Notes under the pieces: generated by a model | Database searches by the model: none | Seen by the model: only the letters and a program-made list of their open reading frames with translations | Told to the model about the DNA's origin: nothing | Position numbers and translations under genes: made by a program | In this document: one piece after another, positions 1 through 4,206 of the stretch | Numbering within the stretch: position 1 is the first letter of the stretch | How the letters are laid out: each line of letters opens with the position of its first letter | IMG/VR virus record: IMGVR_UViG_2541047932_000007 | Location: 1-9,822 of that record | DNA length: 9,822 nt | Origin: a virus | Taxonomy: Duplodnaviria > Heunggongvirae > Uroviricota > Caudoviricetes | Reading direction: 5' to 3' (one strand)

Positions 1-311
1 ATACGATTCTGCTGTGCATTGGGACGACGACAGAGACGGGCAATATCCCCCTGCCGTTTTTCACGGCGGATCCCCTGTGTATCCGTCTGCATCAGGCGCA
101 GCCGCATTTTGGCGATATCCTGGGATATCAGCGAAATGCAAGAAAACACCGCATGAAAGGAGAGGACACTTTCCGGATCGGCTTTCACCCCCTGCTGCCA
201 GGCGCCGGCAAAGGGCTCAGCCACCGCCTGAAACAGGCTGGTCCAGCCCACCTCTTTTACATCACGTCCTGATTTCTGGTTTTTTCGGGTTCGTCGCAAA
301 AAGTTCCACAT
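1..311 (-). CDS. Portal protein (HK97-family-like), N-terminal part; partial, continues beyond window start
   Basis: Not in the ORF track (no stop inside the window). Manual minus-strand translation from ATG at 309-311 gives MWNFLRRTRKNQKSGRDVKEVGWTSLFQAVAEPFAGAWQQGVKADPESVLSFHAVFSCISLISQDIAKMRLRLMQTDTQGIRREKRQGDIARLCRRPNAQQNR, open to position 1. GGAG lies about 9 nt upstream of the ATG. The block resembles the conserved N-terminal region of HK97-type portals (recollection, not searched). The plus-strand ORF 14..547 is its Arg/Pro-rich antisense shadow. Confidence 0.7.
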   Translation of the reverse strand, partial: MWNFLRRTRKNQKSGRDVKEVGWTSLFQAVAEPFAGAWQQGVKADPESVLSFHAVFSCISLISQDIAKMRLRLMQTDTQGIRREKRQGDIARLCRRPNAQQNR

Positions 312-522
312 TCGCTATGCTCCGCATCATGTTTCTTTTTCTGACCCGCCGGACGTCGCGCTGTGATGTACTCCGCCTTCTTCAGGCGAACCAGCACCTC
401 CGCACACGGCTGTGCGACATCCCGGATATCCCCGGGCCGGGCATCATGTGTACCCTGCAGATATCGGATTTTTGCCATCAGTTACTGCGGGACGCTCTCA
501 CCTCCCGCCCTCCTCATCAGAC

Positions 523-2498: not shown

Positions 2499-2523
2499 CA
2501 TGATGGTTACAGGGTGAGCAGGG

Positions 2524-4206
2524 TTATATGAAAAAAACCTCATACGCTTTCTTTTTCGGTTCCGGATTCAGGGACATCAGGGACACCGCATTGAAGAGCG
2601 CCATCAGCGGGTCAATTTTTCCCCGTCCGCTGGCCTGTTTGGTGATAAGAATGGCGTTACCTTTAGGCTCCACCCGGGCATTGCCAACGCACCAGGCCAT
2701 CAGTGGCTGACCACCATGCACCAGCACTCCCTCAGCCAGTTTGCGCTCGGTGGTTTTGATGGCCCCGCCCAGCTTCCAGCCCTGGCTTATCCCCACCACA
2801 CTCTCATCGGGGATCCCGGCTTCCGCCAGTGAATCCAGAATCTGCCCCACCCCTGACGGGTCAATACCGATATGATCCAGTAACTCAGCCTCATGAATAC
2901 GACGCACATACTCCGCCACTTCCGCCGTGTCATCCCCGACCCGACGGACAATCGTCATGTCTCCACAGGCCACAAAATCCTGAAACCGGGATGCCTCACT
3001 CTTCCGTCTGACCACCGCGGTTTCATGCACCCAGGCATGGCCCCAGCCCAGCCATTCGCGGGTTTCCCTGTCACGGCCAGTCACGTACATTCCCAGCAGA
3101 TCATCCAGGCCCCCGCCGTCAATCCCCACCGTCACCACATCAGCGCGCTGCAGGATATCGTCCAGGCTGACGCGCCTGCCCTGCTGCTCCCAGAAATCCG
3201 CGCCCGCCCAGCGGTCAGAACGCAGGGCAAGACCGATTTCCACATTGGCGTGTTTTGACATGAAGCCACGAAATGCTTCCTCACCAGCCTCCCGGGCTTT
3301 ACGGTACTCCCGGTACAGAAAAGCCTCATCCACCGAATAACCGAGATTCGGATTGACCATGGCGAGGTTTTCCATCAGCAGGTGAGCCCCGCTTTCCACC
3401 ATTTCAGGAGGGTGTTCAAATATCACCGGCAGAAAGTGCGGATCATGAATTTTGCCGTCACGGACATCCCGGGCGTACTGCAGTTTCTGTCTGAACACCC
3501 CGGCAGGCGGTTCATTCGACTGGGTGGTTGTGTACACCACAAATCCTTCCGGACGGGAGGCAAGCCCGCCGATGGCTTCACGTAGCATGTCTTCCGCTTT
3601 GTACTGCTTGCCAAACAGCCACAGTTCATCAATCAGTGTCCCCACGGACTTGATACCGGACACCGTATTCGGATCGGCTGCCACCACCTTCAGGGTGGTG
3701 TCCGTCACCCGATGGGTGGTGTCCGTCACCCGATGGGTGATGGTCCGGATATGTGTCTGCACCTGACAGAGGTCATCCAGATCATCGTCCCGTCGTACCA
3801 TATCCCTGGCAGGGTTGAAGGCGTTAGCCGCCACCTCCACGGTCGGGGCCAGAATGGTGTAGCCCGCCGCCTGCCGCCAGTTCAGTAACAGCGCCGTCAT
3901 CATGATCCCCGCGGCCAGCGTGGACTTACTGTTTTTCTTGGGGATAAGGATAAACACTTCCTTGATATGGCGTACACCGGTCTGCGCATCATAGGAGCCA
4001 AACAGGGCCACCACCAGGTCAAACACCCACGGTGCACAGGACTCCCCGAACGTCGGGCTACCCGGTGCATCCACAATCCGCAGTTGTTTAAAAATCGCCA
4101 GTGCATGTGCAGCCTGGTCCGGATAAATCGGAGCCGGAATAATCGACAGCCCCTTTTTCAGGCGCTCTGCCCAGTCCGGACATGCCGTGCTCCATACAGG
4201 TATCAT
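2524..4206 (-). CDS. terL: Terminase large subunit
   Basis: ORF track 2524..4206, 560 aa, ATG start at 4204-4206. N-terminus (CPDWAERLKKGLSIIPAPIYPDQAAHALAIF) and P-loop-like IPKKNSKST are typical of Terminase_1-type large subunits. Its ATG overlaps the stop of the upstream ORF (minus-strand ATGA at 4206-4203). Confidence 0.93.
   Translation of the reverse strand: MIPVWSTACPDWAERLKKGLSIIPAPIYPDQAAHALAIFKQLRIVDAPGSPTFGESCAPWVFDLVVALFGSYDAQTGVRHIKEVFILIPKKNSKSTLAAGIMMTALLLNWRQAAGYTILAPTVEVAANAFNPARDMVRRDDDLDDLCQVQTHIRTITHRVTDTTHRVTDTTLKVVAADPNTVSGIKSVGTLIDELWLFGKQYKAEDMLREAIGGLASRPEGFVVYTTTQSNEPPAGVFRQKLQYARDVRDGKIHDPHFLPVIFEHPPEMVESGAHLLMENLAMVNPNLGYSVDEAFLYREYRKAREAGEEAFRGFMSKHANVEIGLALRSDRWAGADFWEQQGRRVSLDDILQRADVVTVGIDGGGLDDLLGMYVTGRDRETREWLGWGHAWVHETAVVRRKSEASRFQDFVACGDMTIVRRVGDDTAEVAEYVRRIHEAELLDHIGIDPSGVGQILDSLAEAGIPDESVVGISQGWKLGGAIKTTERKLAEGVLVHGGQPLMAWCVGNARVEPKGNAILITKQASGRGKIDPLMALFNAVSLMSLNPEPKKKAYEVFFI
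3696..3737. repeat. Perfect 2 x 21-bp tandem direct repeat inside terL
   Basis: tggtgtccgtcacccgatggg occurs at 3696-3716 and again at 3717-3737. It is in frame and encodes THRVTDT-THRVTDT in the TerL protein. Confidence 0.95.

Follow-up and report, generated by a model that had tools for sequence, protein, structure and literature searches.

The head module encoded in a 9,822-nucleotide stretch of a tailed virus (Caudoviricetes; IMG/VR record IMGVR_UViG_2541047932_000007, positions 1 to 9,822; hereafter, the window) raises the question of whether its unusual gene order and a gene fusion reflect the rearrangement of one prophage or the architecture of a lineage, and of what the fused gene produces. 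In the canonical synteny of HK97 and lambda, the portal gene directly follows the large terminase gene (terL), with the protease and capsid genes after it; the order terminase, portal, protease, scaffold, capsid has been stated as canonical, with portal before protease given as the general arrangement in Arthrobacter phage genomes (PMC5513430). The window departs from this synteny: terL is followed by a single gene encoding a 645-amino-acid (aa) prohead protease-delta-capsid fusion, and the portal gene starts at position 311, past the capsid gene. A preliminary description of this DNA had proposed from the fusion and the order that the module is mosaic or rearranged. Here, we describe the module as belonging to a widespread family and present comparative evidence for an apparently conserved internal start within the fused gene, from which the capsid protein would be made on its own.

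All genes of the head module lie on the minus strand, and the elements that carry the argument are as follows:

2524..4206, minus strand: terL, 560 aa (Pfam TerL_ATPase and TerL_nuclease; PHROG terminase families at E ~1e-144 to 1e-151)
523..2460, minus strand: fused protease-delta-capsid gene, 645 aa, GTG start (profiles, AlphaFold2, and Foldseek)
2005..2319, minus strand: prohead protease domain of the S78 type (aa 48-152 by Pfam; aa 9-139 in the model)
1922..1935, minus strand: hairpin H2, GCCG-GCGCTG-CGGC, codons 176-180 (covariation and synonymous constraint)
1882..1899, minus strand: putative internal initiation region, with AAGGA at 1899..1895, a 10-nt spacer, and ATG at 1884..1882 (M193)
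1678..1878, minus strand: delta (scaffolding) domain, two long helices at aa 195-261 (AlphaFold2; TIGR01554 from residue 204)
556..1305, minus strand: core of the HK97-fold capsid domain (Pfam aa 386-635; model fold aa 293-640)
1..311, minus strand: 5' end of the portal gene, the first 103 codons, running off the window (Phage_portal, phrog_2271, and TIGR01537)

The order given in the preliminary description was confirmed: terL (4206..2524) is followed, after a spacer of 63 bp between its stop (2524) and the GTG at 2460, by the fusion gene (2460..523), whose start is preceded by AGGAGG-N5, and then by the portal gene with its ATG at 311. The genes that it listed, terL, the fusion, and portal, were all recovered; it had missed a 73-aa open reading frame (ORF) between the capsid and portal genes. 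Its calls of a protease, a coiled-coil linker, and an HK97 fold were likewise borne out by profile searches and AlphaFold2 as S78, helical delta, and capsid domains, and the three Pfam families that it had named (Peptidase_S78, Phage_capsid, and Phage_portal) all matched. Peptidase_S78 (PF04586) aligned with aa 48-152 (33.7 bits against a cut-off of 21) and Phage_capsid (PF05065) with aa 386-635 (53.5 bits against 24.2); TIGR01554 matched from residue 204 (79.4 bits against 27.5), and phrog_617 covered the fusion end to end (residues 1-639 on profile positions 7-626, E 9e-260). The score on TIGR01543, a stricter S78 equivalog model, fell below its cut-off (45.5 bits against 59), as did that on NCBIfam NF045541, a protease/capsid fusion model (54 bits against 525), which appears to describe a different fusion family.

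The AlphaFold2 model (25 homologues; mean pLDDT 71) placed a beta-rich domain at residues 9-139 and a confident HK97 fold at 293-640. Between them lay a disordered linker (142-192), a pair of long helices (195-222 and 229-261), and a further disordered segment (265-285). The best Foldseek matches in the PDB were the capsids of Bxb1, HK97, and D3 (E 1e-11 to 1e-14, probability 1.00); a PDB sequence search with the 645-aa protein returned a single weak capsid match (Bxb1, E 0.004), and a structure-based search was needed. The residues H55 (WQHDH) and S110 (GLSVGF), which we take to be the equivalents of the catalytic residues of HK97 gp4, were invariant in 25 sequences, down to 36% identity, and because of this invariance the protease is most likely active.

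We then considered the distribution of the fusion and of the gene order. A 4.6-kb stretch of the window matched 92 phage records at 95–97% identity. Most of these were long-tailed phages converting for Stx1a, Stx2c, or, in some cases, Stx2a, and JLK-2012 and Lys8385Vzw were also among them; the same junctions were present in the named phages BP-4795, 1717, YYZ-2008, JLK-2012, and FSL SP-016; the fusion and order were found in 117 phage records. The interval between the terL end and the portal start was present at ≥90% identity in 1243 of 5426 complete Escherichia coli genomes, with up to seven copies per genome, and the window protein was 98% identical to a protein cluster (P0002) with 9916 member sequences. 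Full-length relatives at 73–77% identity occurred in Salmonella, Enterobacter, Klebsiella, Serratia, Kosakonia, and Pantoea, and full-length fusions at 37–53% identity were found in Alpha- and Gammaproteobacteria. When one representative was taken per 50% identity, 12465 proteins matched at E ≤0.001, and the best 150 of these were nearly all full-length fusions of 630–680 aa. Scans of genomes and viral contigs recovered 109 loci from Gamma-, Alpha-, and Betaproteobacteria. Among loci with enough flanking sequence, 95 of 101 had terL directly upstream of the capsid gene and 94 of 99 had the portal gene within 1 kb downstream. Most of the nine exceptions had terL upstream and portal downstream with inserted DNA, or terL undetected; at one locus (L029), neither gene was detected. 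The portal gene was located between terL and the capsid gene in none of the 109 loci.

In annotated relatives, the module comprises HNH, terS, terL, the fusion, a small ORF, portal, the head-tail connector, head closure, a gp10-like gene, and tail genes, and the window contains the following further members:

5056..5421, minus strand: gene for an HNH endonuclease, first in the packaging module (Pfam HNH, phrog_589; same position in relatives)
4203..4767, minus strand: terS, split by a +1 frameshift (Terminase_2 in the first ORF, phrog_641 in the second)
257..478, minus strand: 73-aa ORF between the capsid and portal genes (phrog_829)

The portal ATG at 311 overlaps the 73-aa ORF (478..257) by 55 nt, and a small ORF occupies the capsid/portal gap in most relatives, including those with unfused genes. 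GenBank entries for BP-4795, 1717, the WGPS phages, and JLK-2012 label the fused gene "(putative) major head protein/prohead protease". The module is the ordinary late-operon head module of a widespread HK97-type siphovirus/prophage family, which includes the long-tailed Stx1/Stx2c-converting phages and Pseudomonas phage PAJU2 and has the order HNH, terS, terL, protease, capsid, small ORF, portal, connector; the terL-fusion-portal order is already known as a standard, widely annotated head module. The preliminary description was right about the domains and about the departure from canonical synteny, but its reading of the module as a local oddity was not supported: comparison with related prophages gave the same order, fixed over the 109 loci and three proteobacterial classes, and, because many characterized phages already carry and annotate this order and fusion, the feature is a known one of the lineage. 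We found nothing on the fusion gene in the literature on BP-4795 and the Stx-phage prohead proteinase, and the papers on FSL SP-016 contain no discussion of this gene.

Relatives with unfused genes, namely Burkholderia phage vB_FUBS1, Moraxella Mcat phages, and Snodgrassella prophages, encode a protease of ~205–234 aa and a capsid protein of ~445–454 aa in the order terL, protease, capsid, small ORF, portal. Because these relatives with separate protease and capsid genes keep the same order, the gene order appears to be older than the fusion, and the fusion appears to be a trait of one subclade. In this large subclade, which includes the window, the protease gene would have lost its stop codon and come to read through into the capsid gene. 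Among Enterobacterales loci (L003-L031), terL fell into classes of ~82% or ~65% identity to the window, whereas the capsid gene was uniformly at 73–76%, which points to recombination at the terL/capsid junction, an ordinary modular exchange that the order survives; in Hydrocarboniphaga, terL was 67% identical to the window, compared with 49% for the capsid gene.

The copy in the window has irregularities of its own. Stx-converting and related E. coli phages (BP-4795, Stx2 phage 1717, YYZ-2008, JLK-2012, Lys8385Vzw, and phi330) resemble it at 95–97% DNA identity with the same order from HNH to connector, and the window differs from them only in its terS frameshift and in a duplication of 21 bp within terL. 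The capsid gene of phi330, a phage for which virion mass-spectrometry data are deposited (PRIDE PXD061229), was 98.8% identical to that of the window. In terS, a run of five C at 4535-4539, compared with four in 20 close relatives, leaves ORFs of 80 aa (4767..4525) and 127 aa (4586..4203) in place of an intact 187-aa frame; this copy is probably a pseudogene, or the result of a sequence error. In terL, an in-frame 21-bp tandem duplication at ~3692-3747, detected with Tandem Repeats Finder, encodes HRVTDTT twice in the ATPase half and gives a protein of 560 aa compared with 553 aa in relatives; a single copy was found at this site in 17 of 17 close relatives matching either form. The prophage copy may be decaying, or its sequence may contain errors. 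The 3' part of terS (4270-4323) additionally contains a 27-bp tandem repeat in two copies, encoding a repeated KKGDAGKKSAKGDAAKK-like tail. Such decay, with two lesions unseen in the close relatives examined, and the recombination near the terL/capsid junction suggested by the terL identity classes would fit a rearrangement or mosaic junction that arose recently and locally in this prophage alone, or an artefact limited to it, for instance through misassembly or loss of a stop codon. We consider this explanation highly improbable in the face of the fusion and order in the 1243 E. coli genomes, 117 phage records, 109 loci, and more than 100 of the 50%-identity representatives, and of the 98% identity to a cluster of 9916 members. 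A sequencing or assembly artefact as the source of the fusion was ruled out by the distribution data.

Next, we focused on the products of the fused gene and surveyed 39 representatives (<85% identity, diverging to ~41% identity) for an internal start. An in-frame start codon with a Shine-Dalgarno-like motif lay within seven codons of the M193 column in all 39 (36 ATG, two GTG, and one TTG); the loci that encode a residue other than Met at this point still have a start codon there (GTG in L019 and L103, TTG in L021). In control windows from the same genes, a start with an equal or stronger Shine-Dalgarno motif was present in a median of 2%, giving a combined p of 2e-36 over lineages that are not independent. 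In the aligned anti-Shine-Dalgarno profile, codon 187 was the strongest of the 645-codon gene (-6.8 kcal/mol against a gene mean of -0.9), and the peak was sharply bounded at codons 186-188, with the rest of the linker showing no affinity; on our reading of the alignment, the remaining peaks seem to match Gly-rich motifs conserved in the protein. The motif differs by lineage (AAGGA, AAGGG, CAGGAGA, or GGAGGG), as do the encoded residues (KE, KG, EG, or QG), with the purine core kept. It is moderate in Enterobacterales (AAGGA/AAGGG) and very strong in most other lineages (GGAGGG, -10 to -12 kcal/mol), where it is the top position in the gene.

The location of the start agreed with the protein architecture. 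In the AlphaFold2 model, M193 falls precisely where the disordered linker gives way to the first delta helix. Capsid proteins that are separate in relatives start at query residues 193-196, and the capsid genes of unfused phages start at the homologous point (MTIAEKIK or MNYKAQLA), each with its own Shine-Dalgarno motif. The arrangement typical of lambda C/Nu3, a conserved in-frame internal start with a ribosome-binding site at a domain boundary, was found in 39 of 39 representatives, with controls. Nested products are suggested because the start and the Shine-Dalgarno motif at M193 are kept in every representative, and the fused gene seems to retain a conserved internal start for the capsid protein on its own.

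In the mechanism that we propose, a full-length protease-linker-delta-capsid chain would be initiated at GTG 2460 behind AGGAGG and a 453-aa delta-capsid chain at ATG 1884 (M193) behind AAGGA, both with the same C-terminus. The delta-capsid chain would supply most shell subunits, and the full-length chain would co-assemble as a capsid subunit, taking the covalently tethered protease with it into the procapsid. Once the shell is assembled, the protease would excise itself along with the linker and the delta domains. This would be the logic of lambda C/Nu3 and of herpesvirus UL26/UL26.5, applied to a capsid protein with its own scaffold domain.

The serious rival to this mechanism is a single 645-aa polyprotein, which would place a protease on every subunit and cleave itself in the procapsid, the internal ATG and purine motif being a product of linker composition or a relic. 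Its appeal lies in the continuous ORF, in a first start whose Shine-Dalgarno motif is strong and conserved (-9 to -11 kcal/mol in the Enterobacterales representatives with a located first start), and in the description of the Arthrobacter and Rhodococcus protease-capsid fusions simply as fusion proteins (PMC5513430). A relic, however, would not be expected to last in 39 of 39 lineages diverged to ~41% identity while the motif itself changes, and a compositional effect does not account for an anti-Shine-Dalgarno peak confined to codons 186-188 and missing elsewhere in the linker or for the start codons retained at GTG and TTG. Several points nevertheless weigh against two products. The case is built from comparative sequence analysis; the 39 representatives share ancestry, so that the p-values overstate the support; and a linker rich in Lys, Glu, and Gly tends by itself to encode purine runs. 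The internal Shine-Dalgarno motif of the window, like that of other Enterobacterales, has only moderate strength (AAGGA with a 10-nt spacer, -6.2 kcal/mol, in about the top 10% of positions), compared with the strong AGGAGG of the first start. Moreover, the sole published proposal that we found for the family, that of the PAJU2 authors as cited in a later paper (PMC8306868), is a single, autocatalytically cleaving capsid polyprotein. Taking both sides together, we consider a two-product gene within the family head module to be the best explanation and a reasonably probable one, and production of the polyprotein alone to be possible, at appreciably lower probability.

The linker also contained a second conserved element. 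Synonymous sites were analyzed in 40 Enterobacterales-type representatives in windows of eight codons; the fraction of synonymous differences averaged 0.51 (standard deviation 0.11) and fell to 0.07–0.13 in windows starting at codons 171-180, within the disordered linker. This zone is under the strongest synonymous constraint in the fusion gene. Its core consists of 15 nt (1935..1921) encoding A-G-A-x-A, the first 14 of which form H2, with a 4-bp stem and a 6-nt loop. The stem is GCCG..CGGC in the window, GCTG..CAGC in other Enterobacterales, and CCCG..CGGG or CCGG..CCGG in other lineages, the last two with a concerted amino acid change from A..A to P..G. With 52 sequences aligned by using the protein alignment, and not the structure, as anchor, 98% of the cells pair, compared with 21–45% when the 3' partners were slid; three of the four pairs changed on both sides (GC:33/CG:18; UA:24/CG:22/GC:2/UG:1), and none of 500 shuffles reached the observed covariation score. 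RNAalifold independently predicted the same helix. These data indicate that both gammaproteobacterial and alphaproteobacterial relatives conserve H2, over a range that runs from Enterobacterales to Alphaproteobacteria.

The hairpin lies ~30–70 nt upstream of the internal start across relatives and ~37 nt upstream in the window, and an A-rich tract follows it in Enterobacterales sequences. An unfused Snodgrassella relative has the variant GTCG-GCGTTG-CGAC 81 nt upstream of the capsid ATG; among unfused phages, vB_FUBS1 and Mcat6 yielded no such hairpin. H2 may aid expression of the capsid protein: it could be a standby site, mark a structural boundary, or serve in processing or stabilization. 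If it served as a processing site or 5' stabilizer, a separate stable delta-capsid mRNA, and not plain initiation within the full-length message, might set the capsid:protease ratio, and the compensatory changes, the synonymous constraint, the position relative to the internal start with the A-rich tract behind it, and the occurrence ahead of a separate capsid gene in Snodgrassella would be in keeping with this. Since the stem has only 4 bp, no Rfam family matched anywhere in the window at gathering thresholds, and H2 was not detected in vB_FUBS1 and Mcat6, we regard such RNA-level control as an improbable explanation in its own right; it is compatible with nested products and does not exclude them. 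For the fuller form of the nested-gene proposal, in which the internal ribosome-binding site provides the bulk of the delta-capsid protein, the full-length chain carries the tethered protease, and H2 tunes expression, we see about even chances.

Several other readings of the linker were tried. One further candidate was considered as a hairpin:

1969..1980, minus strand: candidate hairpin H1, GCC-GCGTCC-GGC, codons 161-164 (weakly supported)

H1 encodes a conserved A-A-S-G, and its inner three pairs were ~95% paired; its compensatory changes (ACC/GGT, CCC/GGG, and GTC/GAC) were too few for it to be called an established hairpin. Long-range pairing between H1 and H2, seen in the minimum free energy fold of the window (z-score -1.1, not significant), is impossible in the other Enterobacterales sequences and was taken to be peculiar to this copy. 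H2 was rejected by eye as a sigma-54 promoter, the GG/GC spacing being 7 nt and not 10, and as a stimulator of programmed frameshifting, as the aligned sequences had no conserved slippery heptamer upstream.

The closest described counterpart is PAJU2, whose ORF003, named a "prohead protease fused capsid protein" and listed as a capsid polyprotein, was 48% identical to the window protein over residues 1-642 (tblastn). PAJU2 has the same order of terS, terL, fusion, small ORFs, and portal, and shares both the internal start (AGGAGGG-N7-ATG) and H2 (GCCG-GCGCTT-CGGC); we found no mention of this internal start in the accessible part of the literature. HK97 gp4 and gp5 resemble the window in the S78 protease with conserved His and Ser, the helical delta domain as scaffold, predicted in the case of the window, the HK97 fold, and the HNH gene beside the terminase genes, but are encoded by separate protease and capsid genes with portal between terL and the protease, whereas in the window the two are fused and portal follows the capsid. 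In lambda C/Nu3, HSV-1 (herpes simplex virus 1) UL26/UL26.5, and HFTV1 gp17/gp17.5, a long ORF starts with a protease, and an in-frame internal start yields an abundant C-terminal assembly protein, a precedent for nested protease/scaffold genes (bioRxiv 10.64898/2026.09.13.751334). There, what the internal start yields is a free scaffold, with the capsid protein encoded by another gene; here, the proposed product, predicted from sequence, would be the scaffold-bearing capsid protein itself. The actinobacteriophage fusions (Arthrobacter clusters AM, AU, and AN; Rhodococcus RRH1) and NF045541 share the idea of protease and capsid in one gene but are unrelated sequence families. In the literature searched, the nested two-product reading was not described for the present fusion family.

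The portal gene differs between PAJU2 and the E. coli lineage as well. In relatives of the window, the portal protein has 861 aa (6720-9305 in L002, the E2348/69 prophage; 6727-9299 in L001; 4663-7058 in L112), with a normal portal domain at aa 54-382 followed by repeats of an IPxPxDGxD unit and a C-terminal domain. This second half was homologous to PAJU2 ORF007 (29% identity over 289 residues), which in PAJU2 is separate from a 464-aa portal protein, and JLK-2012 annotates portal as two coding sequences. The comparison suggests that the portal gene is a second gene fusion in the same module.

Outside these genes, one element was located in the spacer between terL and the capsid gene:

2472..2499, minus strand: terminator-like hairpin GAACCGC-TGCG-GCGGTTT with a T-run (seven pairs)

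It was the best such site within 1..5700 and may represent an mRNA-stability element or a recombination boundary; the late operon around it should be Q-antiterminated. Upstream of the head module (5700-9822, same strand), we observed a lambdoid lysis cassette with a DUF6645-domain ORF (8734-9801), a P21-type holin, DUF1327, lysozyme, and Rz. The plus strand carries a DUF3950 (YlcI/YnfO-like) ORF at 5463-5690, and the GC content drops to 0.42 at 5501-6000.

The module is therefore best seen as having the usual layout of a head module that is among the commonest in E. coli prophages and is annotated in GenBank entries such as those of BP-4795 and PAJU2. The order and fusion as initially reported matter little beyond the caution that "portal follows terL" is a majority rule and not a law. 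The internal initiation region and the H2 hairpin are modestly interesting additions, and the apparent internal start is the one less ordinary point of the module. If the internal start is used, a single ORF would both set the ratio of protease to capsid and guarantee the enclosure of the protease. The fused gene would then be a further bacterial case of the nested-gene strategy common to herpesviruses and archaeal tailed viruses, extending the principle of C/Nu3 and UL26/UL26.5 to the capsid protein itself, and annotations of "major capsid protein" or "prohead protease" in this family would need a second, internal coding sequence.

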